Below, piece after piece: positions 16,798 to 53,856 of a stretch of DNA of 64,000 bases; positions within the stretch are counted from its first letter, which is position 1; each line of letters opens with the position of its first letter. The notes beneath the pieces were generated by a model that made no database searches, was not told the origin of the DNA, and worked only from the letters and a program-made list of their open reading frames with translations. The DNA comes from Oikopleura dioica. Its lineage: Eukaryota > Animalia > Chordata. A program made the position numbers and the translations under genes. The stretch spans positions 15,263,208-15,327,207 of the forward strand of contig OU015568.1 in the NCBI GenBank assembly GCA_907165135.1, read 5' to 3'.

Positions 16798-16798
16798 T

Positions 16799-31519: not shown

Positions 31520-31742
31520 TCACCAGCCACCAAAGAAAGGAGATAGTTAAATAGGAATTAAACGCTGAAAAGAGACGCCACATGAGGATTAACCTGCTCA
31601 GGCTTAAAATAACAGATATCGAACTATTACAAGAAACCAAAAGAAGCTATTTTACTGAAAATATCATAACAAAAAAATGAAGGAAAGAACCTTCAAAACC
31701 CATTGGGCTCACACCAAAGAAATAATAATAACATCATTCAGG

Positions 31743-34336: not shown

Positions 34337-34912
34337 ATGTCTCAAAAGGAAAGTCGGCTCGCAAGCGTAGAAGACCTCCTTAACGGAACAGTAAGAAGCC
34401 CAATCCAGTTGTCGCTTTTCAAGGAAACACTGGCCCGGGCAATACTCAAAAAGCCGCAACAGCGATGCAATGACGTGAACGAAGAATGGCTCAGCCCCTT
34501 CTGTGAAGCAGTGAACACTGTAATACGAGCCTCCGAATATTGGCTTGCGGCGCAAACAACGGCAACAAGAATGCGAATTGCAGGAATGCACCATCATCAG
34601 TTAGCCCGCAGAAACTTAGGGTCAACCGAAGACTTAGTATACTTCATTGCCTTTCGAAACATCCAACGATGGCTACAGATTGCGGACCAAGGGTAGGAGC
34701 AAAGAACGGATAATATTCAACCCATAAGAATTTTAAGCTATGACTACTGGTTGATTCTCGAAATCTGGGGATTCTCTTTCAACGAACCCGAAGTGGCGCG
34801 ATGCTTCTACCTGGATGTTCAGGGCTGGACACCGACTCTTCCATCAATCATTCAATATGGCTACCAATGCGCGGCAAAAACGTCACCAATGGGAGACTTC
34901 CGGTTTTTCTAG
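34337..34912 (+). CDS. Element cargo family X, copy 1 (2 exons; intron 34693-34737; 176 aa)
   Basis: Splicing the 45-bp GT-AG intron gives GYDYWLILEIWGFSFNEPEVARCFYLDV, which aligns with intronless paralog 45547 (GFDRAIIKEIGSINVQEPAVAKEFARDV). Confidence 0.8.
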
Positions 34913-35206
34913 GCAATGCTCAAAAGAAGAAATGCGGAACAGCATCAAGCAACGTACTAATTACGTTAACTTAAACAACAGCTGTATGCCACTTATTAAC
35001 AAAATTGATAGTAGTAGAATTGATCTGTGTTATACTTACCCTTCGTACTTATCGATCATCAATTCGAACCAAACTCTGTATCCTACTGTCCGCCATTGTT
35101 ATAACAGTATTTTTTTAAATCCGTAAAAGACTTAATTATGGTCATCGAAGGAAAATTTCAAGAAAGTGAGTAACTATTTTGGTTCAGACAAACGCATAAA
35201 ACAACC

Positions 35207-37057
35207 ATGACAAAACTTATCAAATCAACCAAACAACAAGCTGACTTGTGCAAAGGAGGAACTATCCTCCTGGTCACCAGCACCGATCTCAGCGGGGCAC
35301 TCGCTGCGGCGGTAAAAACCGCAAAGATCGAAGGCAGCTTCCTACTGGCAACATACGAGGAGTCAATCTTTGCCCAGAAATTCGCTAACAGCGCATTACA
35401 ATGGGCAAAGATGAAACAAGCTGCAGAGGAGATATTGGGAGAAAGCCCAAACACTCTGATCTATTTGGACGACTCCCTGGCCCAGCGGCACGGAACCCAA
35501 ATCCCAAGTTCTTCAAAAACTGAACCTGTGCAACAAGTAAAAAGAGAGCCGGGAAAAGGCGAGAGTATCACAGAAGGAGGTCTGGAGGCGAAACCAGACG
35601 TACCGAACGAGCAAGAGACTGAACAAGTCAAAGAGCTCAGGCGACAGATTGAGCGGCTTCGCTTAGAAAATAGCTTGAAGACCGAGAATCTATCAAAAGC
35701 GCTAAGTAAGGTGGGGGCCATAGAAGAGGAACGGAAGGCAAACTGCGAAATGCTTAACCGATACGACGAGATACACAAAGAAATGATCGCAAAAATGGAT
35801 AACGCATCGGAAATCCTCGACAAGGCCAACCATCTTTTTGGTAATCGTAAGCGAGATCACGACAGTAACACCTCAGAAACAGACTCCGAGGAAGAAGATT
35901 GGGACGAACAAAGAGAGAAAGAAGCAGAGGAGCGAAATGCAAGGAAAAGAACGAGCGAACAACGTCAAAAGAAGAGAGGCCGAGAAGAGAATCCCAGTCC
36001 CTCTCGGAGGGAAAGCTCAACAGAGACAACAAGAAAAGAAAAACTGAGCGAGAAAAAGAAGCCAAAGAAGGATGGAGTGGTCCGATTCGTTGGAAACCCA
36101 CAGAAATTCCAATTGAAAAATTGGAAGACGGAAGAGAATATCACCTATTGGGAGCACCTTACAAGGAATAAAATTGCTCTCAACAACGCAAAGCAGAGCG
36201 GGTTAACAGACAGTCAGATGGTGTCACTCTTTATGTTAACCCTCCGCCCCGAAGACGCCTTCATTGAAGAATTGCTGGAAGAATCCTGGAAGAATAATTT
36301 TGAGCTATTTCTGGAAAAAATTGGGAAATTTCTGGCAGGAAGTCAGAGTAGCATGATGAACGATGTATTGACCGCCAAGCGACGGCCTCAGGAATCTCTT
36401 CTTGCATTCTTTATACGGCTTTGCACCATGTTTAAAACATCCTCGGGAAAAGACCCTAAGTCCCAAGAGGCAGCAATGGTGCTTCACCCAGTCATCAAAA
36501 ACAACGCCACTAAAATCCAAAAAACGGAACTAATCCGAGAACTGGAAGCCGGGAAGGCGGCTGACACACCAATAACGTTTGATAAGCTTCAAGCGGCGAT
36601 CAAACAAGCACAAATCATGGATGATTCAAACTTCCATGACGCTCCCGCAGAGCTTGTCTACAACATGGAAGGGGACAAAAGAACGAACACCCAAGAAAAC
36701 CAAGCATGGTCCAACAAGGGGAAAGGGATATCCGAAGCACCCAAGGTTAGCTGGAAGGAGAAAACAAGTGATGAATGGAACAGGGGACCCGCCACCCGGC
36801 CGAACGCAAATCGACCCCCATGGAACCGACAAGAGCGCTTCAGTCGGGGACGAGAACCTTATCCCCGAAGAACTGGACCACGTGAACCCTTATGTTTCAA
36901 CTGCAATGGGCGAGGCCATATGTGGCGCCAATGCAGCAAACCACTCAAAGACCGATTCGTGCGGGCACAAGCACAAGACAAAGCACGAGAGACGCGGGCG
37001 CGAGAGACAAAGACTCCGCCCGGGACAACAACTGCTAAGCCAAAAACCTCGGGCTAA
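35207..37057 (+). CDS. gag: Gag (616 aa): N-terminal extension, coiled coil, capsid, CCHC nucleocapsid
   Basis: Zinc knuckle CFNCNGRGHMWRQC; lies immediately upstream of pol. Confidence 0.92.
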   Translation: MTKLIKSTKQQADLCKGGTILLVTSTDLSGALAAAVKTAKIEGSFLLATYEESIFAQKFANSALQWAKMKQAAEEILGESPNTLIYLDDSLAQRHGTQIPSSSKTEPVQQVKREPGKGESITEGGLEAKPDVPNEQETEQVKELRRQIERLRLENSLKTENLSKALSKVGAIEEERKANCEMLNRYDEIHKEMIAKMDNASEILDKANHLFGNRKRDHDSNTSETDSEEEDWDEQREKEAEERNARKRTSEQRQKKRGREENPSPSRRESSTETTRKEKLSEKKKPKKDGVVRFVGNPQKFQLKNWKTEENITYWEHLTRNKIALNNAKQSGLTDSQMVSLFMLTLRPEDAFIEELLEESWKNNFELFLEKIGKFLAGSQSSMMNDVLTAKRRPQESLLAFFIRLCTMFKTSSGKDPKSQEAAMVLHPVIKNNATKIQKTELIRELEAGKAADTPITFDKLQAAIKQAQIMDDSNFHDAPAELVYNMEGDKRTNTQENQAWSNKGKGISEAPKVSWKEKTSDEWNRGPATRPNANRPPWNRQERFSRGREPYPRRTGPREPLCFNCNGRGHMWRQCSKPLKDRFVRAQAQDKARETRARETKTPPGTTTAKPKTSG

Positions 37058-37067
37058 GGCCCAGGTT

Positions 37068-40000
37068 ATGAACGTCAGACGAGGACGGCCGGATCACTGT
37101 ACAACTCTCCTCGTACGAACTGACGTAAAATTACGATCCGAGCGACGGTATCCAGTAGTGGTCAAAAACATTCTCACTCTCTTGGATACCGGCGCGAGCC
37201 TCAGCTGTGCCAGCCTTGATTTCGCGAAAAATCTGGAGGCACAGGGGTTCCCACTCAATAAGGAGAAGCCTATCCGTAGCAACCCGATGGCAGCGAAAGG
37301 GGCGCGAATGGAAATAGCATTCGACCTTGTATTGGATATAATCTTGCGAGGAGATCCTGATATCAGATTCCCTGGAACTCGCATAAGCATCATCCCGGGT
37401 CTAAGAGCTGAGCTCATTCTCGGAGTGGACAGTTTGCTTAACAAGACCATCCAATTGCAGAGAAGGACCGTTAAAATAAATGGGCAGACTTTCCCGCTTG
37501 CCTGCCCGGAAAACACCGTCCTACTGCGCGTTATCGAAGCCGGAAAGGGACAGGGAATGAATTTCCTGCGGGTTGATACAGGCCCACGAAAAGTGCACAA
37601 GGCATCAAAGCGACTTCTCCTTACATTGGATCCTGAATTTTCGCCCGGAGTCCCAGGAGTGGCTATGATTATCAACTCAAGCGAGTTGGAAACTGAGTTG
37701 ATGATCACGTACCCGGGTCCTGCGACTCCCGTCCCTAAGATATTCCTGGCCAGAATTGACGAGGTACAGGATGACCCTAATGAAGACTCACCGAAGAAAC
37801 TCACTCTCCAAGACATCGAGAAAATGACATCGAAAACAGAGCTTAGCGAAGATGGAATCGAGCGATTGAAGGAAATTCTAAAACAACATTCTGAAGCATT
37901 CTCGAAAGAAAAGACAGACGTTGGACTATATCAAGGACCGGAAGTCAAGCTCCAGCTTCTCGACCCCAGGCTCCCTGGAGCATGGGTTCGGCCAAGAAGA
38001 ATACCTTTCAGCCAAGTGGAATGGTTGAAAGCTGAGCTAAAGAAGATGGAAGAGGCGGGGATCATCGAAAGATCTACCGGAAGTAGCTTCAACGCGCCAC
38101 TCCAACTGGTAAAGAAGGCGAGCGGGGGCTATCGCATCTGCGTTGACATGAGAGCTCTTAACAACAGGCTCGCTGAAAGCAAATGGCCCCTTCCGTCCCT
38201 TGCCGAGACGTTGGAAAGCTTGTCGGGGTCTGCCTTCTTCTCCTGCGTGGATATAAGACAAGCCTTTTTCCATATGGCGCTGGAAGAAGAAAGCAAGCCG
38301 CTTACTGCGTTCTCAGCTCTCAATTCGCAATACCAGTTCAGACGGTTACCCATGGGTCTCAAGATCTCGCCGAGCGTCTACCAAATGGCAATGAAAGCCA
38401 CTCTGGGAGACGATCTGGGTAACCGTGTGGTCGCCTATCTTGACGACGTCCTCGTGTGTGGGAAAAACGAAGAAGAGCACCTCCAGACACTCGACCTCGT
38501 CCTTGCGAGACTTAAGAAAGCGGGGTTCCTGTTGAATCCAGACAAGTGCATCCTTGGAGCAAAGAAGATAACGTTTTTGGGGCACGAAGTAACACCAAGC
38601 GGCTATTTTCCAAAGACAGACAATCTTGCGGCCATACGAGAGTTTCCAGTACCGACCAACAAGAAGGCGCTTCGAAGGTTTATCGGGATGTGTTCGTTTT
38701 ACAGCACACTCGTTCCTAATCTTCAACGAAAACTAGCCCCGCTTCATGAAATCAGCGGGCCAAAAGCAACCTTCAATTGGACAAGCTCGCAAGAAGACGC
38801 GTTTCACCTCATCAAAAGGCTTATGGTGGCTCAAACTGGGCTAGCCTTTCCATCGAATGACCCAAAAGCTGTCTTGTTAGTCACATCAGACGCCAGTGAA
38901 ACGGGTTTCGGCGGAATGATAAGTCAGAAAATAGGAGATGAGGAAGAACAGCCCTTGGGCTACACTAGCGGATTCTTTCGAGGTCCTCAAGTGCGGTGGG
39001 CCATAAACGAAAAGGAACTTTATGCTTTCATTAAAACTCTTGAAACATTCCATCACTTCGTTTATGGGAGATCATTCCGATGGCGGACGGACAGTAAATG
39101 CCTGTCTTTCATTTGCGCGGAAACAAATGGCAAGCAAACCAGAAGACCATCTGCCAAGAAACTCCGCTGGCTGGAAAAATTAACAGAATACGATTTTAGC
39201 ATCACTCACTGCGAAGGGACAAGCCTCGAAATGAGTGTCGCTGACTGTCTTTCCCGGATTGATCCCCCAAACTTGGTAATGCACATCGACTCGGAAATTC
39301 AGAAGAAGTATAGGATGCTGAACCGACCAATCCCGACCTGGATAAAACTTAAAGGAATCACGAAGTCTGAGCTTCGCTTGGCCCAGGACAACGATGGAGA
39401 CTTGGTCAATTTTCGTAATGGATGGAAACCGCTGAAAGCCAAATATAGACTCAAGGAGCGAAGCGATGGAATACTTGTTTATGATCACAAGGATAAACCC
39501 CGGATTCCAATCCCGCAAGAACTCCAAGACAGGATTATATTAAGCTTTCACCTCCCACACCACGGAAGAACAACCAACCTGGTCCACGCGATGAGGGACG
39601 CGGATATCATCTTCCCAAAAATGGCAAAGAAGATAAAAACCAAGGTACAAACGTGCCCAGCGTGCCTCGCAACCGGAACGACCGAGAACCCAAAGCATCG
39701 ACAAGTGACGGCGCCAAAAGAGATGCATCCGAACATGACCGTAACCATCGACCTTTTGGGTCCTTTACCGACAAGTCCAACTAGAAAGAAGTATATCCTC
39801 GCGGCCGTAGACAATCTCACTCGTTGGATTGAGTTGAGGTGCATAGTCGACAAGACAGCCGAGCACGTTGCAAAAGCCCTTCTCGATATATTTTTTCTAA
39901 GAGGCCCCCCAAGGGCCGTATCTTGTGATTTCGGTCGAGAATTTAACAACGTGCTCTTAACAGAACTATTAACATCGTTCGGCACAGCAGTCAACCATGG

Positions 40001-40607
40001 CACCCCTTACCGACCACAAGGACAAGGACTCATTGAACGAGCAAATCGCGAGATTCTTAAACACCTAAAATCGCTCGACATCGACGAACACCGATGGGAC
40101 ACTTACATTCCATCTATACAGTTATCGATGAATTTAACTTACCACTCGGCACTCGGAACGAGTCCCTTCCAAGCAATGCACGGATGGCTGCTCGCCGAGC
40201 CACTTTTCTCAAGACAAATCAACGGAGAAGAGCTCCCTCGGAACGTCAGACTCTGGGTCAAAGAGTCAAGTTCCCGAATGTGCGCAGCCTTATCACTGTT
40301 AACAGCGAGACAAGCTGTGCCTCTCATGGAACTACCGGACGAAAATCAACCCGATGGACTTGAAAAGGGGACCCCCGTCCTTCTGAAAAAAATGAAGCCT
40401 CCAGGAGTGAGCTCCAAATTATTTAACGCCTGGAAGGATGGCTTCGTCGTGAGAAAACGACTTGATCATAATACTTATTTAGTTACTCCCGTCGAATCTC
40501 CTAGGCGGCGCTTCCTAGTCCATCGCTCCCGTATACGGCGATTGGGCAGGCCTCTTGAGGAAGCACCACCGGAAAAACACGTATATACGGTAATCAGTCG
40601 AGAATAA
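37068..40607 (+). CDS. pol: Pol polyprotein PR-RT-RNaseH-IN (Ty3/gypsy order); possibly extended to 40818 by a 43-bp intron
   Basis: LLDTGAS (protease), VDMRALN and YLDD (RT), TSDAS/EKEL/TDS/ADCLSR (RNase H), H-x-x-H-H...CPAC, D-D-E (IDLLGP, SCDFG, LIERAN) and GPY/F-like WKDGFVV. The ORF is uninterrupted. Confidence 0.97.
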   Translation: MNVRRGRPDHCTTLLVRTDVKLRSERRYPVVVKNILTLLDTGASLSCASLDFAKNLEAQGFPLNKEKPIRSNPMAAKGARMEIAFDLVLDIILRGDPDIRFPGTRISIIPGLRAELILGVDSLLNKTIQLQRRTVKINGQTFPLACPENTVLLRVIEAGKGQGMNFLRVDTGPRKVHKASKRLLLTLDPEFSPGVPGVAMIINSSELETELMITYPGPATPVPKIFLARIDEVQDDPNEDSPKKLTLQDIEKMTSKTELSEDGIERLKEILKQHSEAFSKEKTDVGLYQGPEVKLQLLDPRLPGAWVRPRRIPFSQVEWLKAELKKMEEAGIIERSTGSSFNAPLQLVKKASGGYRICVDMRALNNRLAESKWPLPSLAETLESLSGSAFFSCVDIRQAFFHMALEEESKPLTAFSALNSQYQFRRLPMGLKISPSVYQMAMKATLGDDLGNRVVAYLDDVLVCGKNEEEHLQTLDLVLARLKKAGFLLNPDKCILGAKKITFLGHEVTPSGYFPKTDNLAAIREFPVPTNKKALRRFIGMCSFYSTLVPNLQRKLAPLHEISGPKATFNWTSSQEDAFHLIKRLMVAQTGLAFPSNDPKAVLLVTSDASETGFGGMISQKIGDEEEQPLGYTSGFFRGPQVRWAINEKELYAFIKTLETFHHFVYGRSFRWRTDSKCLSFICAETNGKQTRRPSAKKLRWLEKLTEYDFSITHCEGTSLEMSVADCLSRIDPPNLVMHIDSEIQKKYRMLNRPIPTWIKLKGITKSELRLAQDNDGDLVNFRNGWKPLKAKYRLKERSDGILVYDHKDKPRIPIPQELQDRIILSFHLPHHGRTTNLVHAMRDADIIFPKMAKKIKTKVQTCPACLATGTTENPKHRQVTAPKEMHPNMTVTIDLLGPLPTSPTRKKYILAAVDNLTRWIELRCIVDKTAEHVAKALLDIFFLRGPPRAVSCDFGREFNNVLLTELLTSFGTAVNHGTPYRPQGQGLIERANREILKHLKSLDIDEHRWDTYIPSIQLSMNLTYHSALGTSPFQAMHGWLLAEPLFSRQINGEELPRNVRLWVKESSSRMCAALSLLTARQAVPLMELPDENQPDGLEKGTPVLLKKMKPPGVSSKLFNAWKDGFVVRKRLDHNTYLVTPVESPRRRFLVHRSRIRRLGRPLEEAPPEKHVYTVISRE

Positions 40608-41013
40608 ATATCCAATCATGATTGTTGCCTAGGAGGAGAATAAGTCAAGCAAAACAAGGAGCGTGCAACCAGTAGAAGAGCTTCCCAATAGCAGCAAAAC
40701 CGAGAACACGGCGACAAACCCGCTTGGAAACGAAAACGGAAAATATGACACGACTGAGCAAGCGAGGCCGCGGAGAACAAAGGGACGCGATAAAAACTTC
40801 TACAAGAAATTCTTCTGAGGGTACCGGCCAACAGGGAGACAAGAGCCTCCTCAAAAATAAGAAGGTACCACAATTCGAAGCAGACGAATCCTCAGAAGTC
40901 GACGGGAAAGAGATTTTTCTTGCGAAATCTGTCAGTTCTAAATTTTTTCACTGGAAATCTGCGATTAAACCCTTAGTCATAAGGTGATATAATCAGGAAT
41001 TATATTTAGACTG

Positions 41014-41385
41014 ATGACATCAACTAATAACGAAATAATGAAAATCTGCCCATCAATAACGATACCCAAATGCCCCGATCCACCAGAAATCGGAGTAAAA
41101 ATGAACTGCGTGAGCAAAGCGAACGCGGGACTCAACAGTACAACTAAGGAGAAATCCTCCACTAGCTTCGAGGTAGGAGGTAGCTCACTTATAGGAAATT
41201 TTATTTCATTCCTATTTTCTTTCGTCGCGGGACTTATAACCAGTCGCATCTTCAGCAGACTCCGCGGCCGGAAGAAACGAAGAGAAAACCTTTTTGCAAA
41301 GCGGAACTTCTGCTTAAACCCAAGCAACCAACGACAGGAAGACGTGCAGGTATCCCAAGAATGCCAGCAAATAGAATTCATCTAG
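41014..41385 (+). CDS. Small single-pass membrane protein (123 aa): Cys/Pro ectodomain, TM, polybasic RLRGRKKRR
   Basis: TM LIGNFISFLFSFVAGLITSRIF; acceptor atttag 4 nt upstream. Confidence 0.7.
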   Translation: MTSTNNEIMKICPSITIPKCPDPPEIGVKMNCVSKANAGLNSTTKEKSSTSFEVGGSSLIGNFISFLFSFVAGLITSRIFSRLRGRKKRRENLFAKRNFCLNPSNQRQEDVQVSQECQQIEFI

Positions 41386-41546
41386 ACATATGCCCAATAT
41401 GTCTCGACAATAAAATTGTGCCAAAAATTCTCTGTTGCACGCATAGCTACTGTCAGGGCTGTATCGATTACTGGTTCCTGACCCAAATGGAAAACTGCCC
41501 CTTGTGTAGACGTTCTATAACATGGGCGGAAATGATGGCGAAATAA
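41361..41546 (+). CDS. Minimal C3HC4 RING protein (61 aa)
   Basis: CPIC-x11-CTHSYCQGC...CPLC. Confidence 0.75.
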   Translation: MPANRIHLDICPICLDNKIVPKILCCTHSYCQGCIDYWFLTQMENCPLCRRSITWAEMMAK

Positions 41547-41649
41547 TGAACTCACTTTAGGAAGATCCCTTCTTGAGCAAACAAGGCTTAATGATCCAGA
41601 AATTGGATTTCTTCGTGCAAGCAGAAAAACAGTCACAGAAACCGACCGG

Positions 41650-42321
41650 ATGATTCGGGAAATCGTTAACCGAATAATCCAAAAATCACCACCATCGGAA
41701 GCGACTAAAAGGAAAATCTACGACGCTCTATGGAAAAAGCTCCAGACAGCAAAAGAGGCAAAGGAACAAACCATTGTCAAAAGGATTCGACAAATGACTG
41801 CAACAACCGCTGCGCACAAAAAAGGAAGGATCCTACATTTGGATATCCTTGAGTACCTTGAAGGAAGCGACCTAGTACCACACTGGCACAAAAACATCGA
41901 CAGATGGGCAACCGCGATGAGATACATCGACGAACTGGAAAATCATTATAAGAGCAGCACGCCATTATATCAGCGTGACCAACGAAATATCAAAAGTTTA
42001 CGCAAACAGACAAGCCGAGTCATCAGCGACCAAATACGGCGTGGCTTCCGACAGCCTCCTCAGATATCTTGGGAAAAGCTCTTTGAAAAAACTGAAAGCA
42101 CTACAAAGATCGAGAGGAAGCCACTTCTCGAAAGTATCGAACAAGCGACCGGCAAAATAGGAAAGAAGACAAGCGTAGTCTTGGAGATTGCTTTTCACTC
42201 TGTGCTACTGTACAATTTCATAAAAGCCTGCCTTCAAACAGTAGCAGTAGGATGGCAGGTTGTTTACGTGCCCATACGAGAAATCACAAGATATATTGTA
42301 TCACAACATCAGATGGACTGA
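41650..42321 (+). CDS. Element cargo, hypothetical 223 aa, hydrophobic C-terminus
   Basis: Long basic helical ORF in the sense cluster. Confidence 0.65.
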   Translation: MIREIVNRIIQKSPPSEATKRKIYDALWKKLQTAKEAKEQTIVKRIRQMTATTAAHKKGRILHLDILEYLEGSDLVPHWHKNIDRWATAMRYIDELENHYKSSTPLYQRDQRNIKSLRKQTSRVISDQIRRGFRQPPQISWEKLFEKTESTTKIERKPLLESIEQATGKIGKKTSVVLEIAFHSVLLYNFIKACLQTVAVGWQVVYVPIREITRYIVSQHQMD

Positions 42322-42362
42322 CAGACAAATCGTGAAAGATGATAAACAAATAGTTTAGACCA

Positions 42363-42509
42363 ATGACATCCATGGAAGAGATTCGGGAATACGTCTACGG
42401 GGCCTATGAGTACTCAAGGGATCTAAATACTATCGTGGTTATTATCTTATTTGCCCTGTACGCTATCGACTTTGGACTTAAATCTCTGTCCAAGGAAAAA
42501 CAAAACTGA
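42363..42509 (+). CDS. 48-aa micropeptide, copy 1
   Basis: MTSMEEIREYVYGAYEYSRDLNTIVVIILFALYAIDFGLKSLSKEKQN; acceptor gtttag 4 nt upstream; paralog at 42589. Confidence 0.7.
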   Translation: MTSMEEIREYVYGAYEYSRDLNTIVVIILFALYAIDFGLKSLSKEKQN

Positions 42510-42588
42510 AACCTCATCCAAACCAACCCCCAGGGGGAGGGGGGAAATCAACTACCCATCGACGCTCACGGAAACCTACTTCAGAAAA

Positions 42589-42735
42589 ATGACCTCGATG
42601 AGCCTTGCCAAGAGATACCTTGAACGGGCGTCGGAATACCTGAAGATGGCGAGAGAAACAACATTTCACATCCTTATCGTTCTGCATGCCATCAAATTCG
42701 GATTGAGACTGCTAACTAAACCCAAACAAAACTAA
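42589..42735 (+). CDS. 48-aa micropeptide, copy 2
   Basis: MTSMSLAKRYLERASEYLKMARETTFHILIVLHAIKFGLRLLTKPKQN; acceptor cttcag 4 nt upstream; same length and same MTSM/AIxFGL/KQN frame as copy 1. Confidence 0.7.
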   Translation: MTSMSLAKRYLERASEYLKMARETTFHILIVLHAIKFGLRLLTKPKQN

Positions 42736-42821
42736 CCCGTCTGGAAACTAGCCTAGCTAGTCACAGAAAAAAAAAATATTATATCGCACTCAGCCCATAG
42801 CCAATCGATTCCTTAAGACCT

Positions 42822-43187
42822 ATGGGCGGAAAAAATTCGGCGTGCAAAACCCCCTGTCCCGAACCGATCTGCCCCGTCAAACACACCATAAGATGGGATA
42901 TGGCTTGGGAAATGACGCGGAACAAAATCAAAGAAACAAGTGCATGGCCGTATCTTACATCTATTATGATAGGAACAATCATCACACTTGTAGTCAAAGT
43001 ATACACGAACCGACGAGAAGAAAAGTATCAGCCTTCCGAAACGGCATCGAGAATTATCCTCGACACCCAAAATATTGCTGATTGGACACAAACGGCAGCA
43101 ACGACAGGCTCTAAACACAATTCTGCTATAAGAAACGATAAAACTTGTACTGTTAGGAATAATCTCGAAAGAGTAACCCATCTCTAA
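42822..43187 (+). CDS. Small single-pass membrane protein (121 aa), N-myristoylation consensus MGGKNS, Cys/Pro ectodomain
   Basis: CKTPCPEPICP, TM WPYLTSIMIGTIITLVVKVY. Confidence 0.7.
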   Translation: MGGKNSACKTPCPEPICPVKHTIRWDMAWEMTRNKIKETSAWPYLTSIMIGTIITLVVKVYTNRREEKYQPSETASRIILDTQNIADWTQTAATTGSKHNSAIRNDKTCTVRNNLERVTHL

Positions 43188-43247
43188 GGTAGATCCGAAC
43201 CCAAGAAATAACCAGTTGTGCTTAAGACAAGCCACTATTTCAACAAA

Positions 43248-43757
43248 ATGTCGGCAAGATCTACACAAACAGTAAGCAACAATGCTTGCGACGAATTCGA
43301 AGAGATGATCGTTTGGACCATCATGGACAATGACACAAGCCATTTTGACGAAAAGGAACTCGTTGAGAAAATCGGATGGACTGGATTCCGGGAAGCCATA
43401 AAAGAAGCAACCGAGGACGCAAAAACTTACCAACAATGGTTAAAAACCACCGTTGCAACGTGGACCCGAGTTCCTCAGGAAATAAAAAGCACACTTAAGG
43501 ACTTTGCTCATGATAATTCTAGGCAAGGACTTTTCGACTGGACTTACGAGCTTATACTCTATGGATCCGCACTGCACTCCACGACTACTGACAGAGGGGT
43601 GTTAAACGAATGGCAAAACGCAGTATACGGAGATTTTGTTGAAAAATTCGGAAATCCTCCTTACATAGCATTTACCGAGCGCCAACGACTTCCGGAAAAA
43701 GAAGAGATAAATATTGCACGTAAAACGTGCTTGCTGCGCTTAACCTCAGAAATATGA
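43248..43757 (+). CDS. Element cargo, hypothetical 169 aa
   Basis: ATG after acceptor tgcttaag; Trp-rich globular-looking ORF. Confidence 0.65.
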   Translation: MSARSTQTVSNNACDEFEEMIVWTIMDNDTSHFDEKELVEKIGWTGFREAIKEATEDAKTYQQWLKTTVATWTRVPQEIKSTLKDFAHDNSRQGLFDWTYELILYGSALHSTTTDRGVLNEWQNAVYGDFVEKFGNPPYIAFTERQRLPEKEEINIARKTCLLRLTSEI

Positions 43758-43831
43758 ATCATAAAAACCCCAAGTAGAGTTAACCTCAAGTCTTTATTTG
43801 AGTAGATTGATAGCACTAACTTCCGTTTAGA

Positions 43832-44047
43832 ATGGCCCCAAATACTTGCAAACCAACGAATTGTCCCTCAACCGAATGTTCCGAAGCCGTAGAAAAACTT
43901 GATTTACCGGGGACCGTCTATCTAGCGGACACGATAAGCAAAATCCTATTTTCAATCATATACATTTTGCTTGGAATCGTCGGCTGGATGTGCGTGCATG
44001 CTCTCTTCAAGTACTTTAAAAATAGTCAAGAAAAAAAGACAGAATGA
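43832..44047 (+). CDS. Small single-pass membrane protein (71 aa), Cys/Pro N-terminus
   Basis: CKPTNCPSTEC, TM ILFSIIYILLGIVGWMCVHALF; upstream cactaac branch point + ttccgtttag. Confidence 0.7.
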   Translation: MAPNTCKPTNCPSTECSEAVEKLDLPGTVYLADTISKILFSIIYILLGIVGWMCVHALFKYFKNSQEKKTE

Positions 44048-44136
44048 GTTTATTAAATCCTGTTTACCCTTATGGAACTGCTCGGACAACGAAAAAAACC
44101 AATGAATGTGTAAGAAAATAAACGAACTTCCTTTAG

Positions 44137-44919
44137 ATGGAAGAAGGAAACACCACTCAGCAAGCAAGTCGGGAAAACGAAAAGCAAAACCGGCACTATC
44201 CGCGGCTACACATTGAGTATCCATGTGGCAACAGGAAGATATGTCCCGCAACGAGTGACGATCCGATGGAAAATCTGAGGAATGCGATTTTTGAAGCATG
44301 CCCCGCTAAGCCCGGAGAAGAGTTGCGAAATAAAATCAAGATTTTTCACAAAGGGTCCGAAGTCAAACGAAAGGAAGAATTAAAAGGTCTGAAACCTGGA
44401 GAAACAATCCACGCCACTTGGCCTGGGGAACTCGGCCCAAATACTACTCCCGCGCAACAAACTAGGCAGATCCCAAAAATCATCGATGCCGCCTCCATCC
44501 AAAGACAAAATTTCGAATCATCCCTTAGAAACACGTTGAGAAACCAGCCACCTCAAAAACGAAAACTCGAGGAAGAAAGCGAGGTTCAAGCAGAGCAAGC
44601 AACACATCGACAGATCGGCTGTCTGCTAACAAAACTTGGAAGCGATCTTATCCAGTGGTCAAGCCCCTTACATGACCTAAGTAACCTGTTACAAGCAGAT
44701 GAAATCTTACGACACGACCCCGAAAAAGCAGACAAAACAAACAAAGCCATTCTTAACAATTACACGAACATGACGTACCTGAGTCAGCTCCTAGTAAACC
44801 TTCAACGAATCCTGTCCCCGACGACACTCAAGTCACCAGAGACCTTATCCGAAGCACCGTATCTGAACACAATGCACCCAGCCTTTGAACTGTCTCCTAG
44901 CTTCAACAATTTCCTTTAA
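44137..44919 (+). CDS. Ubiquitin-like-domain protein, BAG6/Scythe-like (260 aa)
   Basis: UBL pattern LHIEY..G.RK...DDPMENLRNAI...IKIFHKG...L..GETIH, followed by a helical block (IGCLLTKLG...PLHDLSNLLQ) resembling the BAG6 conserved region. Confidence 0.5.
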   Translation: MEEGNTTQQASRENEKQNRHYPRLHIEYPCGNRKICPATSDDPMENLRNAIFEACPAKPGEELRNKIKIFHKGSEVKRKEELKGLKPGETIHATWPGELGPNTTPAQQTRQIPKIIDAASIQRQNFESSLRNTLRNQPPQKRKLEEESEVQAEQATHRQIGCLLTKLGSDLIQWSSPLHDLSNLLQADEILRHDPEKADKTNKAILNNYTNMTYLSQLLVNLQRILSPTTLKSPETLSEAPYLNTMHPAFELSPSFNNFL

Positions 44920-44953
44920 TAAAAGACGTGAATAGGTAACAGGCTCCCTTCAG

Positions 44954-45487
44954 ATGCGGTACAGATGCGCTTATTGCAACACTCAATGGGCGTCCATAAA
45001 TTTCGAAGACGGCTGTAGAAATTGCAATAGCGATTTCATCGAAATAATCAATGATCGAGCCAGCACACGAGATTCAAATACAAACTGGACCACCCTGGGA
45101 CAAATCAAGTGGACTCTGACGATAGAGAAAAGGCACTGGGAGAAGCTTAAGTCCTTAAACACCGACCTGGTAAAGAGCAAACAGAAAAAATAGAGCGGCT
45201 TAATGAATCACGTATTTAAGATGATGCGATTCCGCATTCCGACGCCCTCCTCGCCCAAAGAGAAGCTAAGAACCGAAAAGGAAGGCGGTAAGGACTTTCC
45301 CGTGGACAAGCAACGCCAAAAGGAAGTGGACATCTGCGCAATATGCCAGGAAGGACTCTTCAACAACCTTGCTTGCCTACGTTGTAATCATGTTTTTCAT
45401 CAAGGTTGTATTCGCAAGTGGTTAAACCAACCACGCTGCTCGCGCTGTCCGTACTGCAACCAAACAGTCCCACTGCGTTTCTTCTAA
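44954..45487 (+). CDS. RNF126/RNF115-like E3 ligase A: Zn ribbon + RING-H2 (intron 45170-45220; 160 aa)
   Basis: YRCAYC...CRNCNSDFIEII (cf. CPRCESGFIEEL); CAIC...CNHVFHQGC..W...CPYC. A 51-bp GT-AG intron joins them in frame. Confidence 0.75.
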
Positions 45488-45546
45488 CCACGAATTATAA
45501 GAAGCTAAAGAGCAAATTGAGTAATTGTTCCTTCTTTTAAGAACAA

Positions 45547-46104
45547 ATGGAACAGGCAAAAATTGACAATATTATCATTGGAACAGCGGAAGACGCGATC
45601 AAGCTTTCCTCCTTCCAAGAAATTATCGTACGAGAAATCCTGGGGAAACCGAAGTTGATTGGTTTCAATGCTGAAGAAGAATGGCAGCGTCCCCTGAGAG
45701 ACGCCGTTCATTTGGTAAACCAGAAAGCCGAACTATGGCTAAGATCCCAAACTTGGCAGGAACAAGCAACAATAGCGAAACTGCCGAGACAACGACTAGC
45801 GACAACAACTTTGTCTTCCACCAAGGACCTCGCACTGCTGATCGCATTCCGAACTATGCAAAGAAAGTTGAAAAGCCCTTGGCAAAAAGAAGGTTTTGAT
45901 CGCGCGATCATCAAAGAAATTGGGAGCATCAATGTTCAAGAACCAGCGGTCGCCAAGGAATTCGCTCGCGACGTAAACACGGGAATAGAATCGATTCCGG
46001 CAATCATCGAAGAGGCGTACACAAAAATAAAAAATGAAGAATCACTGGAAGATACCCGAAAAAAACCTGTTAAACCTGCATGTCTGACACTTTCCCAGCG
46101 ATAA
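45547..46104 (+). CDS. Element cargo family X, copy 2 (185 aa, intronless)
   Basis: IKLSSFQEIIVREILGKP / EEWQRPLRDAV / STKDLALLIAFRTMQR align with copy 1 (34337). Confidence 0.8.
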   Translation: MEQAKIDNIIIGTAEDAIKLSSFQEIIVREILGKPKLIGFNAEEEWQRPLRDAVHLVNQKAELWLRSQTWQEQATIAKLPRQRLATTTLSSTKDLALLIAFRTMQRKLKSPWQKEGFDRAIIKEIGSINVQEPAVAKEFARDVNTGIESIPAIIEEAYTKIKNEESLEDTRKKPVKPACLTLSQR

Positions 46105-46202
46105 GAGAAAAGCTGGATAATACTTCCCCGAACTCATTTCCTTCCGTCTTAAACAAGTCAACGTCTTTTAGAAAGCATTTGCTGACAAAAAGTAATTTAA
46201 GA

Positions 46203-46694
46203 ATGAAGCAAACCGGAGGAAATTACATCCTCTCCCTTGTCATGAATCAACCAACTGCAATGCCCAAAGAGGAGCTCGCCGCGAAGGGACTTGACCGTGG
46301 TAGAGCATTCGGGGAAGGATGCGGAGGAACTCAAGACAAATTCCTCGGTAGCAAAATTGGGATCGACGCTATGATAGAGGCAGTGAAGCAAACCCTCGAA
46401 GAATTGTCCGAGGGTCGAGACCTGCCTGCAGAACAAGGAGGACTTCTAATGGGAACCGCGATAGGCTTTATGAAAAGCCACGGTCACTCACCTCTTCACG
46501 AGGAAGGCTATCGAAAAATAGTGCAAGTCGTGTTTCCTCGATTGGCAAACGTACAAACACCGGCTTACTGGAGCCCTAAAACAATATTCGCACACCTGTA
46601 CTTCAATCTCATGATGAGACGACAGAAACTACCCAGACAGGGCGTAGGCGCGGAGCCACCGAAGGTAAGCTTGCAAGATGTGTCCCGAAATTAA
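46203..46694 (+). CDS. Element cargo, hypothetical 163 aa
   Basis: ATG after acceptor aatttaag. Confidence 0.6.
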   Translation: MKQTGGNYILSLVMNQPTAMPKEELAAKGLDRGRAFGEGCGGTQDKFLGSKIGIDAMIEAVKQTLEELSEGRDLPAEQGGLLMGTAIGFMKSHGHSPLHEEGYRKIVQVVFPRLANVQTPAYWSPKTIFAHLYFNLMMRRQKLPRQGVGAEPPKVSLQDVSRN

Positions 46695-46715
46695 ACAATC
46701 TAGAAAATCGCCCGA

Positions 46716-46901
46716 ATGGATCCGTCTGTAGCAATTCCGGGACCAACAACTCAGACAACACAAATTTTCCCCGGGCAACACACCACTCAAATCCAGCCGA
46801 CAACAAGGGAACAACCAATCCAGATGCCAACGGAGAATCTCATCGGAGACGGAAACGTAGACAAATTCTTCGAAACAGTCTTCCCACCTGCCTTTCAATA
46901 A
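46716..46901 (+). CDS. Small Pro/Thr/Gln-rich ORF (61 aa)
   Basis: Sense ORF filling the gap between cargo genes. Confidence 0.4.
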   Translation: MDPSVAIPGPTTQTTQIFPGQHTTQIQPTTREQPIQMPTENLIGDGNVDKFFETVFPPAFQ

Positions 46902-47038
46902 CCCTGAACCATATGTATTTCCGGGCTAACCATCCCCCTCCTACAACCATACCCAACAACCACATCTGAAAACACCAATCGATTATAAGGAATTATCACT
47001 GAAAACCGGAATTAATAAGATTTCTTTCAAGATTGAAA

Positions 47039-47700
47039 ATGAGCTCCCCAAGAGATTCGAACCTAGCTCCAAAAACCGAGCCGGAAATAAAGGTAAATAA
47101 ACAAAATGATAAGAGCTAATCTTCCCTAAGGAGGAATCCGTTCATCTCGAGCTACTCAAATCCTACAAGCACCTCCTTCCGAACCAAATCTACAATTATG
47201 CCAAACTTGTCGTTAAACGAGTAATGACAACTGACCCAAAGCTTTCCCCAAAAGGCATCGTGACCAGCGCAGTTTATTTGGCGTACAAATTTTCGCCAGA
47301 GCCAAAAACAACAACAGCCATCGGAGAAATGCTGAAATGCCCAAATTGGATGATTTACAAAACCGCACCGTTAGTACGGACACGATTCAACAAGGAGACC
47401 AAAAACGAGCTAGAGATTGCAAGAAAATACATCGATCAACAAGCTCATCTCGCTGATTCGGATTGGATCACTCGGGCAAGACAAATAGCCGACCATGCCT
47501 GGCACCCCAACATCAAAGCGAGCCCGAAAAGAATTGCTGCATCATCCGCGTACTTAGCATACAAATTTTCGCCAACACCAATGTCGGCGAGGAAAGTAGC
47601 ACAGCAATGGAACTTCTCCACAGCGCAAATTCTGGCAACAGCCCAAACCATTCAGAAGCATCTCAAAATAGTCTGTTTTATTACCGCCCGGCGGGAGTAG
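47039..47700 (+). CDS. TFIIB-core-like (two cyclin-fold repeats, no Zn ribbon); intron 47093-47130; 207 aa
   Basis: Repeats GIVTSAVYLAYKF and RIAASSAYLAYKF. A 38-bp intron (GTAAAT...gctaat...ccctaag) supplies an in-frame ATG exon. Confidence 0.7.
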
Positions 47701-47749
47701 ACTGCTTGAACAATCAGAGTTACCGATCTTAACCTGAACCCGATTTCAG

Positions 47750-48524
47750 ATGGCTAGCTTTCGCTGCTTAGGTTGTAACCTGAATTGCGAGGAGATTCGA
47801 AAACCCTGGAATTGCCCGAATTGCAACAGTAAGTTCATCGATCTAATAGGAAAATGGAAAAAAGAAGACGTGGTAGACAAGACCGGTTACAACAATGGAG
47901 AGATTCTCTTCAAAATCGTTGCAAACCACGAGAGGGCAATCAGCCAAATCAAACACTTGATGGAACTTAGTAACTGTCGAACCTCTGCACATGTAAGTGC
48001 CCTAGATGGTTGGGAAAAAGTAAAAAATTAATCAGGGTGAAACAAATGAAAACGCCCAAACACCGGGGCCTACTCCATCAACGGAACCACCGAAAGACCC
48101 AACAGGCAGAAAGACGTCCGGGCTTTTAGAAGAAAAGAACAGTTTCAAAAAGGCACCGACTTCTGTTAACCTTGAAGGACGGAATCAATTGAAAATGAGA
48201 CCACAGCCAAGGGTAGGAGAAATAGAAGGTATTCGGGGACAGTGCCAAGGAAGATACCTCATACCAAATGGGAAGCGTAGACATAAACAAAAAACAATTG
48301 AAGAAATTGGGACTCGCGAATATGAAAGACGCGAGGACACACTTCGACATTCCACCATGCATGAGACTCTTGAATACCCTTGCGGCATCTGCATGGAAGA
48401 ATTCGCGGCCAAGTGCTGTTCATTCCTCCCCTCGTGCGGGCACACTTTCCACACTCACTGCATCCTAAAATGGCTTCTCCACAAAAATACCTGTCCAATT
48501 TGCCAGGAAATCATAGCAAAATAA
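47750..48524 (+). CDS. RNF126/RNF115-like E3 ligase B: Zn ribbon + RING-H2 (intron 47993-48035; 243 aa)
   Basis: FRCLGC...CPNCNSKFIDLI; CGIC...CGHTFHTHC..W...CPIC. A 43-bp GTAAGT...CAG intron joins them in frame. Confidence 0.8.
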
Positions 48525-48576
48525 AATAATAATAAGAAAAAGATAACTCTGACACTCTTAACTTACCCTGTTAAGT

Positions 48577-49421
48577 ATGGACGAGAACCAAGAGGAAGCA
48601 GCACAAACTGAAAACGAAGAATCACCGCATAATTCAAGGCAGAAGGAACAAACACTGCCATGTTTCTTGGAAGAAATAATGACACCACCGAAGAAAATAG
48701 GGCGCCTAGAAGTAATCAACCCAGATGGAACAAGAACTTTGCAACAATTCGTTGAAGGAGGAGCCACGTGCGAGGAACTGCAAGCACTCTTAGACTCACT
48801 TTCACGCATTGAATTGACAGAATGGGAAAAAGAGGTAGGCGACCCCTGCCGCATTTGCCTGGAAGAATTTGACAAAACAGCAAACCTTATACCCACCTGT
48901 GGACACTTCTTTCACCAACATTGTCTACGAAACTGGCTCATATGGAAGGATTCTTGCCCACTATGCATCTTACCGGTAAACGAGAACAGATTGAACATGA
49001 CCCGAAAATACTTTAGGTTAAGCCGAAAGGAACCATCCCAATAACAATTAAGGATTGGCTGGAAAAGAAACATAAAGTTAAGTACGAATCGTTGCTCGAT
49101 GCGGTAAATATACTTGAAAAGAAGGAAGAATATGACAACATCAACTCACATTTCCGCCTCGAACCGGACGGATCGCTCATTGAAATAAAAATCATCTTCA
49201 GGAAAGTCGAAGGCGAAGAATTGGAGGAAAGGCTCATGCTGACAAAGAAAATCAAGATAAGCGCAGTAGAAAAGTACGAAAGTGATTGCGGGCTCTGCCA
49301 GGAAGACCTGCCTGAAGACATATCGGTCATGACATGCTGTTACGCCTACTACCATAATGCGTGCCTGCGAAAATGGCTAGCAAACAGACCTTACTGCAAG
49401 TACTGCAACACCCCCCTATAA
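48577..49421 (+). CDS. Tandem double-RING protein (intron 48976-49016; 267 aa)
   Basis: RING-H2 CRIC...CGHFFHQHC..W...CPLC and a second RING CGLC...CCYAYYHNAC..W...CKYC. A 41-bp GT-AG intron joins the ORFs in frame. Confidence 0.75.
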
Positions 49422-49481: not shown

Positions 49482-50351
49482 ATGATGTTTAGAATGCTCT
49501 CCACAAACACATTTCAGCTCTACGTATGGCTTCCTACCGAAAACATTTTTTTCGAGAACCATGTCTCGAGGAACCAACAAGGATTCCGGGACGCACGGAA
49601 AGCAGGGCTCTCCGACGAACAATTGACAAGTCTCTTTCTCATAACACTGACACCAGAACAAAGGAGTTACGAGACTCTCCTCGACGAAATTGAGAAAACA
49701 AATTTTGATCTATGCGTAGATCGGATGAGGAAGATTCTTACCACGAACCTGGTATACGATCGAGACTTGCCATACCTCGACGCCAAGGAAAAATTCCGGC
49801 TCTATGTATGGGGACCAAACGAAAAAATCAGCTTCGCACAACATGTGGCAAGAAACAGACAAGGGTTCAACAGCGCAAGAAAATGTGGGCTTCTAGATGT
49901 TGATCTCACTCGTCTTTTGTTTATGACTCTCAGACCAGAGTTTGCACACCTCGAGAAAGGCCTAAATAGGAATGAAAAAACCAAACTCGAGCTTTGCATC
50001 GAGAGAATGAAGAAATGTATTTCAGCGAAACATCAAAACCATAATAAGGGGAATGAAGTAAACGGAAAACGCAAAGAAGGCGAAGCCCTGATCATTTTCT
50101 TCGGACGACTCTGCGCAGATCTGCAAAAGTCACCTGGCGAAGAACCACTATCAGACGCCGCGGCCCTCAGAATAATTTACCCTATTCTCCTACAGAACTG
50201 TGGCCCTGCCGAGTTCCATACCCTTGTCAAATATAAGAGCAGCGACGGAACCCAAGATTTAACCTTCAGAGCGCTTGCAGCTAAACTAGGGAACCTGCAC
50301 GTACCCTACGGTGGCATACAAACAAGACCAAGACGCGCTATTAATCGCTAG
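49482..50351 (+). CDS. Capsid paralog 2 with tandem-duplicated CA N-terminal module (289 aa)
   Basis: FQLYVW..ENI.F..HV.RN.QGF..ARK.GL.D..LT.L...TL.PE occurs twice and matches Gag FQLKNWKTEENITYWEHLTRN...GLTDSQMVSLFMLTLRPE; then RKEGEALIIFFGRL. Confidence 0.85.
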   Translation: MMFRMLSTNTFQLYVWLPTENIFFENHVSRNQQGFRDARKAGLSDEQLTSLFLITLTPEQRSYETLLDEIEKTNFDLCVDRMRKILTTNLVYDRDLPYLDAKEKFRLYVWGPNEKISFAQHVARNRQGFNSARKCGLLDVDLTRLLFMTLRPEFAHLEKGLNRNEKTKLELCIERMKKCISAKHQNHNKGNEVNGKRKEGEALIIFFGRLCADLQKSPGEEPLSDAAALRIIYPILLQNCGPAEFHTLVKYKSSDGTQDLTFRALAAKLGNLHVPYGGIQTRPRRAINR

Positions 50352-50703: not shown

Positions 50704-51675
50704 ATGGATAAACATAAAATTATCGGAGAAAAGGCAAGTGGGCTGCTTTCTGGGCTCAATGATTTGCTCCCACACCTCGGTCCCCTCGGTAAAGTCTGGT
50801 ACGCAACTTTGCTGGTAAGAAGTATTGTCCTATTAACAGTTGGTACGGAAATTTATTCAAACGATTCAGGCGGATTCAGATGTAGCACCAAACAGCAACT
50901 GTGTAGCTCAGTTTGCTATAACCAATTTTTACCAGTCAACCTGACTAGATTTTGGACTTGGCACCTCGTCATTATTGGGATCGTCACTCTGGGGCTCGGA
51001 CATCTTATCCTGAAACCCGCAGAAGACGTACAGCTTATGCGATTACTCGAACACGACATAAACCCAAAACCGACAGAATTAATCGTCTGGCCAAATCGCC
51101 AGGACCGGCCAAGCTGGACATTTCAACTGAAGAGGCTTAATGAACTCCGCTCAAAATATGGGCATATGCAAGGCTTCAAAGAAAAATACAAAGGTAATCG
51201 CCTGGTCATCACGACACCATCAACGAACTGGAAACGAATCTTGTTCCTAACCAGTCTGTGCGTCATTGACCTTATTTTTCTAATTATGAATTTTGTGCTC
51301 CTCAAACACCAATACAACCACGAAACACCTTGGACGACCCTCCTTAAGGCAGGACAACTGTTGAAGACCCCAGCTTCATTTATCTGCAAAATTGATAAAT
51401 ACGCGATACTATCAGAAAAAGAGACGAGGAATTTCGCGGAAACTGGATATGATCCTGCTGACCCGCGTTACTTCTTCTGGAAAGCACAGCACGCATGTGC
51501 CCAATCCGAGTCCGTCTGTACTGTCGACAAATTCACGGAAAAAACGTTTATCTCCTGTACCATGATCGGTGCAACCCTAGCGGGCACTCTATTGCTAGCA
51601 ACAGGCGGACTGTTTTACCTGATTAAAATAATTCATAGAATTCTGTCAAGACAATGGAAAATCAGGCGGACGTAA
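50704..51675 (+). CDS. Connexin (gap-junction/hemichannel protein), intronless, 323 aa
   Basis: GKVW TM1; EL1 FRCST.Q..CSSVCYN...P....RFW; EL2 C...C...C with FTEKT; four TM segments; very short C-tail. Confidence 0.92.
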   Translation: MDKHKIIGEKASGLLSGLNDLLPHLGPLGKVWYATLLVRSIVLLTVGTEIYSNDSGGFRCSTKQQLCSSVCYNQFLPVNLTRFWTWHLVIIGIVTLGLGHLILKPAEDVQLMRLLEHDINPKPTELIVWPNRQDRPSWTFQLKRLNELRSKYGHMQGFKEKYKGNRLVITTPSTNWKRILFLTSLCVIDLIFLIMNFVLLKHQYNHETPWTTLLKAGQLLKTPASFICKIDKYAILSEKETRNFAETGYDPADPRYFFWKAQHACAQSESVCTVDKFTEKTFISCTMIGATLAGTLLLATGGLFYLIKIIHRILSRQWKIRRT

Positions 51676-51712: not shown

Positions 51713-52622
51713 ATGTCTGCTCCAGGCTGCTCTCTTCCCGCCTTTACCTGCTCATATCATGGCCCAAAGCACATAGCCGACGAAAGGCTTGTGACAGGAG
51801 ACCTTATCTGCAAAATATGCGGACTTGTCGTAGGAGAAAGATGCCCACCACTCAACCCAGAAAAATCAATGCGAGTGACGGCCATCAAACCAAACGAAAA
51901 CTTGCCAAAAACTTTCACCCGGAATAACGAAGAAACAGGGGACGAATGCATCATATCAAACGAGGCCCAACTATCCAACCGCGAGAAAAATAGGTTACAA
52001 ACTGTCCTTCGGGAATGTGAAGACCTCATCGAAGAAGCAGGAGCCCGATTGATATACTCAGGACTCACTAATACAAAACTACGAGCTTACGAACTCATCA
52101 AAAAGCTATACCTCAAAGAAAAACAGGGAACAACTTGGTACTTCCACCGCCAAAATCGCGCAGAACCCGTGGCAATAGCGGCGTGCCTCTACCTGGCCAG
52201 TAAGCAAGAGAACTGCGACCTGAGCTTGGAAGAAATCTGCCAGGCAACTGGCACCTCTCCCCCTAATCACCCAGAGAATGATTCGCAAATTCGATACCTT
52301 CCTCAGAACAGCAAAAATCGACGCACACATTAAAAACAGAATCAAACCTTACATCCAAAGAATAGCAGCTGCGCTTCGATTAACTAATCACCAAGCGAAA
52401 GAAATCGAAGCGCATGCCATCCTGATAAGCAAAGAAACCCCATCAGCCACAACCTCAGCAAAAACGCTCGCCGCCGCCAGCACCTACGTATATATCGACC
52501 GAATAAACCGACCAAAGTCAGTCAAGGAAATAGCAAGACTTGTGAACGCGGGAACCCGGCGGCTTCAAATCTACATCGCAGAACTCCCTCGAACACTCGG
52601 AGGAAGAAGAGAAAGGGAATAG
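51713..52622 (+). CDS. TFIIB homolog (Zn ribbon + core), split by a 1-nt frameshift in a C-run near 52258
   Basis: CSYH...GDLICKICGLVVGER Zn ribbon; AIAACLYLAS...SLEEI and TLAAASTYV...KSVKEIA cyclin repeats. Deleting one C joins the two ORFs. Confidence 0.88.
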
Positions 52623-53532: not shown

Positions 53533-53545
53533 AAGGAGGGTAAAG
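53533..53545 (+). other. Polypurine tract
   Basis: AAGGAGGGTAAAG directly abutting the 3' LTR. Confidence 0.8.
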
Positions 53546-53852: not shown

Positions 53853-53856
53853 CCGT

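Follow-up and report, generated by a model that had tools for sequence, protein, structure and literature searches.

Tor elements of the chordate Oikopleura dioica are long terminal repeat (LTR) retrotransposons with an LTR-gag-pol layout, a 4-bp target duplication and polymorphic insertions (PMC4402516). Tor1, Tor2 and Tor4a are tabulated without env and without additional genes (PMC2774666 supplement). The subject of this report is a window of 64,000 nucleotides from the same species (assembly GCA_907165135.1, contig OU015568.1, positions 15,263,208 to 15,327,207), which contains a Tor-type element of 37 kb. It differs from the described Tor elements in its 13-kb leader, its roughly 25-30 cargo genes and the absence of a recognisable env.

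That a genome RNA can stay unspliced while its splice sites are skipped is an established principle, known from Cer1, Ogre and Tor3a env. Cer1, a Ty3/gypsy element of C. elegans, makes a multiply spliced, SL1 trans-spliced subgenomic mRNA alongside a genome RNA that remains unspliced despite its consensus sites (PMC3315495), and encodes a factor, CERV, that exports the unspliced genome RNA (PMC10309623). However, Cer1 has a single spliced product and its unspliced 8-kb RNA doubles as gag-pol mRNA, whereas in the O. dioica element gag lies 18.7 kb inside behind an acceptor of its own, and the predicted introns are tiny, dedicated ones, including one in integrase. Ogre, a plant Ty3/gypsy element of the Tat lineage, has an intron in the pol region and an unspliced genome RNA (PMC6317226); this single intron of ~274 bp lies between GAG-PROT and the reverse transcriptase (RT), and the element has one or two extra open reading frames (ORFs) and a size of 16-25 kb, due mostly to long LTRs. 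The giant planarian gypsy element Burro exceeds 30 kb and has captured ubiquitin- and apoptosis-related domains, but its cargo is fused in one polyprotein of ~4,900 aa and its LTRs are long (PMC6431247); here, the cargo consists of separate small ORFs and the internal region alone measures 36.7 kb. The layout also recalls the spliced-leader (SL) operons of the host, whose genes likewise share a strand, stand close together and have an acceptor ahead of the ATG, although gaps in the element are somewhat longer than the cut-off used to predict host operons. Most host operons have two genes and the largest 11 (PMC4122922), whereas an operon of the element would be far longer and mobile. No giant, multi-gene or intron-bearing-pol Tor element was found described in the sources searched (including the accessible parts of PMC13524379 and bioRxiv 10.1101/2025.08.15.670264; subscription papers lay outside the search), and the 37-kb, operon-like, intron-tolerant organisation appears to be undescribed.

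We propose that the element is reverse-transcribed from an unspliced template and expressed through trans-spliced mRNAs, a reading to which we give, as a whole, a probability of about 0.6. The fullest version of it, a mobile operon in which a 37-kb non-messenger genome RNA is copied whole, SL trans-splicing yields some 25-30 mRNAs, among them those of gag-pol, Gag decoys, CKS1, connexin, TFIIB-like proteins and RING ligases, and even pol may acquire and retain ordinary introns, is put at even odds.

The element is a single insertion (16491-53852, 37,362 bp). Its LTRs, called matching in a first-pass annotation of the window, are identical base for base over 307 bp. It is a Ty3/gypsy LTR retrotransposon of Tor type: the LTRs have TG...CA ends, the target is duplicated, and gag is followed by pol in the order protease, RT, RNase H, integrase. 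Pfam matches in pol run RVT_1, RT_RNaseH, rve, with a weak zf-CCHC match in gag; the protease gave no match in a Pfam search and is visible as a DTG motif only. The pol protein is 72% identical to P0002, whose 90% cluster contains AAT48677.1, and cargo exons are 99-100% identical to named O. dioica gene models. A host TatD relative also groups with a protein of O. dioica. The clade may be Tor1, to judge from an approximate match of the protease motif to a published table (PMC2774666 supplement). The large env glycoprotein ORF that follows pol in the env-bearing classes (Tor3a, 3b and 4b) is absent, and a family search found no envelope family among the ORFs 3' of pol, all of which are at most 334 aa long. 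A host RING gene is interrupted by the element after codon 3 (16481-16490 and 53853-54168), and the contiguous empty site was found in contigs of DNA run X3 and reads of RNA run X8; the insertion is recent and the family occupies several sites. The interrupted gene has its own acceptor just upstream, and its empty allele, present in X3, is transcribed in X8.

How could a single LTR serve so many genes? Within the element there are 36 non-nested, ATG-led ORFs of at least 60 codons, a count that includes second exons and split pieces. Of these, 21 (gag included) have the acceptor motif TT(T/C/A)AG no more than 30 nt ahead of the ATG, compared with 24 of 309 other ATGs (p 3e-12); shuffles of the same upstream windows gave a mean of 2.7 and a maximum of 9 in 5000. 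The ORFs without it are mostly second exons, pol or split pieces. Twenty of the 21 acceptors are unpaired, with no consensus donor 30-60 nt upstream. Examples of acceptors lie at 35187, 44136, 44953, 47749 and 50696. Among related loci, acceptors precede four of the six ORFs after pol in L001 and gag in L002. O. dioica resolves its operons by SL trans-splicing (PMC7986045, PMC4122922, PMC6883708), for which an unpaired acceptor has been described as sufficient (PMC6883708). Gaps between genes have a median of 87.5 nt, and 8 of 26 are 60 nt or shorter (from a hand-drawn gene list). Since gag starts 18.7 kb from the 5' LTR, behind several ORFs, it is unlikely to be translated from the genome RNA if scanning is cap-dependent. 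The unpaired acceptors and the LTR-gag distance, both missing from the model of the first-pass annotation, thus suggest that the genome RNA and the mRNAs are different molecules. It is likely that the mRNAs carry a spliced leader, and less so that they carry an LTR leader or come from internal promoters.

The most serious alternative, possible but clearly less probable, also accepts real introns and an unspliced genome RNA, and derives the cargo mRNAs by alternative cis-splicing from a single major donor at 16832, shortly past the primer-binding site, to some 20-25 acceptors, in the style of a complex retrovirus. The strong donor-like site 35 nt past the LTR speaks for it, as does Tor3a env, which is cis-spliced from a 5' donor (PMC4402516), and the unpaired acceptors fit it equally well. 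However, introns of 13-36 kb would be needed in a host whose introns are mostly shorter than 50 nt, with 2.4% above 1 kb (PMC4122922), and unpaired acceptors are the substrate of trans-splicing in this host. It is unlikely that cargo and gag-pol, again with real introns, are transcribed from internal promoters as is env in Tor3b/4b, the acceptors serving monocistronic trans-splicing or nothing: such promoters are documented in Tor3b/4b (PMC4402516) and several gaps measure 100-300 nt, but those of 34-60 nt offer promoters little space, and the enrichment of acceptors argues against this explanation.

Are the short GT-AG segments introns? Eight had been named in the first-pass annotation, and each is present, begins with GT, ends with AG and is 38-51 nt long, as expected of U2-type introns of this host. 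Six of them (34693-34737, 40590-40632, 45170-45220, 47093-47130, 47993-48035 and 48976-49016) rescue a frame as had been claimed: an ATG-led frame that stops within 1-22 codons gains 57-189 further codons. The other two, 34121-34161 and 43189-43226, lie between ORFs and were correctly located as GT-AG segments, but they rescue no frame under the criteria applied. A donor scan of 24 kb found 30 consensus donors, 16 with an acceptor 35-55 nt downstream; eight of these 16 rescue a frame. Over 3000 random placements the number of rescues averaged 1.1 and never exceeded 6, although consensus and thresholds were picked after looking at the data. One of the eight, 44110, is probably due to chance, while another, 46665-46703, had previously been missed. 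A relaxed scan for GT/GA/GC donors gave further candidates, which were rejected as lacking homology. The nine segments (the eight plus 46665-46703) have 36% GC compared with 45% for the region. Most host introns predicted in the same way in the left flank measure 40-44 nt and have similar ends, and O. dioica introns are reported to peak at 47 nt (PMC4122922). Removal restores conserved protein by homology at 40590 and 34693 and by paired paralogs at 45170 and 47993; at 47093 and 48976 the case is made by the frame alone. Judged from sequence, the coding introns are very probably real.

The pol intron is the best supported of these segments. It was compared across 76 pol matches, four of which stand out; L001 is one of 26 loci. 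The pol of L001 is 73% identical to that of the window, with 405 of 601 nt identical upstream of the donor. At the same codon it has a GT..AG segment of 47 nt (43 nt in the window), in phase 0 and with an in-frame stop in both, and in both the donor lies 17 residues past the last conserved integrase motif. After the L001 segment comes a tail of 65 aa whose end matches that of the window tail. In the distant relatives P0003 and P0004 (36-37% identity) the tail belongs to an uninterrupted pol ORF that closes with the same basic motif, and the spliced window tail is 78 aa long against 78 and 69 aa in these two. The 61-aa basic tail that splicing had been said to add to integrase is thus homologous to the pol end of intron-less relatives. 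Because the two lengths are unequal modulo 3 and each segment contains an in-frame stop, no single frameshift or read-through rule fits both, whereas splicing does; the upstream identity of 405/601 indicates that the intron has been kept in two lineages that have long been separate. The pol sequences of P0001, P0002 and P0113 read into the same donor; P0001 and P0002 continue past it in the wrong frame (44 nt, inferred from protein only), and the deposited pol AAT48677.1 stops within the segment that is interpreted here as an intron. A weak search of the 61-aa tail against longer proteins found no match. A further distant relative, L004 (6802-8853), has an uninterrupted pol that is 32% identical and also several ORFs after pol.

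The other segments vary in their support. The gene at 34337 is colinear with its intron-less paralog at 45547 to within two residues across the junction, as had been proposed (exon 1 39%, E 5e-23; exon 2 31%, E 8e-7); unspliced, it would insert 15 codons and a stop relative to the paralog. The genes containing 45170 and 47993 are a paralogous pair, each of which needs its intron to join a shared zinc ribbon to RING. Public gene models on two chromosomes, which come from an RNA-trained gene finder (PMC8008620), use the introns at 46665, 47093 and 47993, and the acceptor at 49016 with another donor. By contrast, 34121-34161 and 43189-43226 have no independent support; the latter may equally well, or better, supply the acceptor for the gene that follows it, and use of a weaker donor at 43173 would join its flanking ORFs in frame. 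Strong donors stand right after stop codons at 34121 and 43189 and at 4663 of L001, and such donors may decide whether an acceptor further downstream takes part in cis- or in trans-splicing.

It is improbable that the segments are not spliced and represent chance GT-AG pairs at frameshifts, in decayed ORFs or at borders between small ORFs. In its favour, no junction has been observed on RNA, two of the eight segments leave the frame unrescued, sequencing errors probably underlie some of the window's breaks, and the exon at 45221 has its own ATG. Nevertheless, this explanation leaves unaccounted for the segment at the same codon of L001 with a length differing modulo 3, the homologous tail in intron-less relatives, the colinear paralogs, the permutation result and the same sequence in DNA runs X3 and X4.

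Those runs belong to a set of four, with 219 contigs; X3 and X4 come from two other studies, while X1 is possibly the source of the window and was not counted as independent. As the first-pass annotation would have predicted, other copies retain the segments: the contigs listed for X3 and for X4 span, in each run, at least seven of the eight with very few differences, and neither an intron-less form nor a joint was seen among the 219 contigs. In both runs the LTR ends abut other flanks exactly. The family is therefore insertion-polymorphic and keeps the segments; the comparison with other runs covered the element except for its 19.5-29.5 kb part. The window differs from all of X1, X3 and X4 at three small places (~44-52 kb), two of which fall at apparent ORF breaks, suggesting that the three are assembly errors in the window. 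Reads from four RNA runs were also placed (17 from X11, 19 from X12, 20 from X13 and 7 from X8); nearly all fall at the 3' end of the stretch. They cover no segment, their host flank is ~90% alike and the X8 reads span the empty site; the animals behind these runs apparently lack this insertion. X11-X13 reads at 53531-53560 match the polypurine tract and the LTR start only and then diverge; behind them is a transcribed relative with a different LTR. No relatives were found among viral contigs.

Segments kept in independent insertions, and in a pol lineage that is 27% diverged, imply that the RNA which is reverse-transcribed must normally contain them. Given real introns, an unspliced template is thus highly probable. 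This part of the first-pass annotation, that the packaged genome is an unspliced RNA, is supported indirectly by the persistence of the segments in the copies and, for pol, in L001, although the principle is not new. Over long times rare intron loss or gain does occur, as seen from the intron-less paralog and the intron-less distant pol. Least likely is spread of the intron-bearing block as DNA, by segmental duplication or recombination of two smaller elements and never by reverse transcription: a length of 37 kb does exceed the sizes reviewed for LTR retrotransposons (PMC6431247) and the comparison with other runs spanned the element outside its 19.5-29.5 kb part, but the identical LTRs, the one matching target duplication, the contiguous empty site, the exact junctions with other flanks and an intron within pol itself all go against it.

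How would an unspliced template and trans-spliced mRNAs be produced together? A single LTR transcript, handled like a very long operon, would have two fates. Trans-splicing at any acceptor would remove the 5' end together with the primer-binding site, so that processed RNAs could not be copied. Gag-pol would be translated from its own mRNA, on which removal of the pol intron would give integrase its tail. The gag-pol proteins would then package the genome RNA in trans, and it would be copied whole, introns included. A fraction of the transcripts would have to escape the spliceosome altogether, by means of some factor or signal.

Several points weigh against this proposal. Every intron remains a prediction, with no splice junction or spliced leader observed on RNA, and no factor protecting the genome RNA emerged from the analysis. 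The choice of acceptor motif was made with the data in view, and 10 of the 36 upstream stretches contain the reverse complement of the motif, so the signal may be partly compositional. The donor at 16832 permits the cis-splicing explanation, other Tor classes make env by cis-splicing or from internal promoters, and most gene gaps are longer than the 60-nt cut-off of host operon prediction. As the 45221 exon has its own ATG, the AG of 45170-45220 could be a trans-splice acceptor. The public gene models are themselves predictions that fuse neighbouring ORFs and pair the 49016 acceptor with another donor. Finally, contigs collapse copies and drop rare variants, and rare intron-less copies are possible.

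The interior of the element consists of a ~13-kb A-rich leader and 24 kb of same-strand ORFs (Table 1). Pfam searches of these ORFs identified CKS1, five RING domains, a connexin and weak TFIIB matches, while many ORFs had no assignable family. The break of the TFIIB-like gene is probably an assembly error. Three extra Gag capsid-like units (30761-31519 and 49482-50351) are 30-47% identical to gag and may possibly act as decoys or in copy-number control. No heptamer slippery site was found in the gag-pol overlap. A candidate alternative intron at 41173-41255 has a counterpart in L001 at 2898-2983 (83 and 86 nt, both phase 0); its removal would skip a membrane segment and enter the overlapping RING frame, which in L001 has no methionine ahead of the RING. 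Longer ORFs of the leader, on both strands, gave no significant Pfam match. Its repeats at 21857-29078 comprise families of ~60 nt (7 and 3 copies) and a tandem 41-42-nt repeat at 25020-25226, and may be packaging or export signals. Two antisense leader ORFs (26175-25672 and 24446-24117, minus strand), without Pfam match, have an end motif resembling the basic integrase tail.

Two assignments suggested by likeness found no support. The similarity of the zinc-ribbon and RING genes to RNF115/RNF126 was not confirmed by Pfam or PDB searches. For a Rev-like role of ORF 52859, with its arginine-rich end, there was no supporting PDB or Atlas match, and the structure model of the ORF has a pLDDT of 41; in this search for an export factor, ORF 52859 was compared with PDB and Atlas, and the remaining family-less ORFs with Pfam only.

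Table 1. Coordinates of the element and its parts in the 64,000-nucleotide window.
Feature	Position	Strand	Remarks
Target-site duplication, left copy	16487..16490	+	4 bp
5' LTR	16491..16797	+	307 bp, TG...CA, identical to 3' LTR
Likely primer-binding site	16798..16815	+	TGG one base past LTR
A-rich leader	16816..29600	+	dispersed repeats
Strong splice-donor-like site	16832..16837	+	35 nt past LTR, candidate major donor
Gag capsid-region paralog	30761..31519	+	47% to gag
CKS1-like gene	31677..31985	+	PF01111, E 2e-26
GT-AG segment after stop codon	34121..34161	+	no frame rescue
Two-exon gene	34337..34912	+	paralog of ORF 45547
Likely intron	34693..34737	+	45 nt, phase 2, in-frame stop; paralog colinearity
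gag	35207..37057	+	CCHC knuckle; acceptor ends at 35187
pol ORF	36576..40607	+	protease motif, RT, RNase H, integrase; overlaps gag in different frame
Likely intron, integrase C-terminus	40590..40632	+	43 nt, phase 0; same codon in relative L001
Integrase tail	40633..40818	+	61 aa, basic end
Membrane-segment ORF and overlapping RING ORF	41014..41546	+	candidate alternative intron 41173-41255
GT-AG segment between ORFs	43189..43226	+	its AG is the acceptor before ORF 43248
Ubiquitin-like, possibly BAG6-like ORF	44137..44919	+	lead only, Atlas score 0.85
Zinc-ribbon and RING gene	44954..45487	+	likely intron 45170-45220, 51 nt
Intron-less paralog of 34337 gene	45547..46104	+	
Two-exon gene	46202..46901	+	likely intron 46665-46703, 39 nt; junction shared by gene models P0111, P0112
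TFIIB-repeat-like gene	47039..47700	+	likely intron 47093-47130, 38 nt; gene model P0105
Zinc-ribbon and RING-H2 gene	47750..48524	+	likely intron 47993-48035, 43 nt; gene models P0105, P0110, P0111
Double-RING gene	48577..49421	+	likely intron 48976-49016, 41 nt; P0105 uses acceptor, other donor
Gag paralog	49482..50351	+	two capsid-like repeats
Connexin gene	50704..51675	+	single ORF; PF00029, E 3e-18
TFIIB-like gene	51713..52622	+	zinc ribbon and repeats, weak matches; broken in window
Last ORF	52859..53479	+	arginine-rich C-terminus; no family found
Polypurine tract	53534..53545	+	purine run ahead of 3' LTR
3' LTR	53546..53852	+	
Target-site duplication, right copy	53853..53856	+	

The host DNA around the element contains long, near-perfect inverted repeats (61518-63758 and 15712-16465), one of which ends 25 nt before the insertion site. 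Host genes at 181-15600 of the window encode p53-like, glucosidase II beta, SUI1-domain, cytosolic carboxypeptidase, cyclophilin, TatD and Sin1 proteins.

What would such an element mean for LTR retrotransposons and for their host? If the proposed reading is true, the size limit of LTR retrotransposition would rise beyond the sizes reviewed in PMC6431247, and would do so in one of the smallest animal genomes. Trans-splicing would let a retroelement carry a toolbox of captured host genes like that of a DNA virus, and the genome RNA would be separated from the gag-pol mRNA. The element makes it possible to test by what means a long RNA evades the spliceosome despite its dozens of good splice sites. 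Its pol and paralogs, with and without an intron, record how introns have come and gone in nature through reverse transcription. The analysis also suggests that a deposited Tor pol sequence is truncated and that retroelement cargo has been annotated among the genes of O. dioica.

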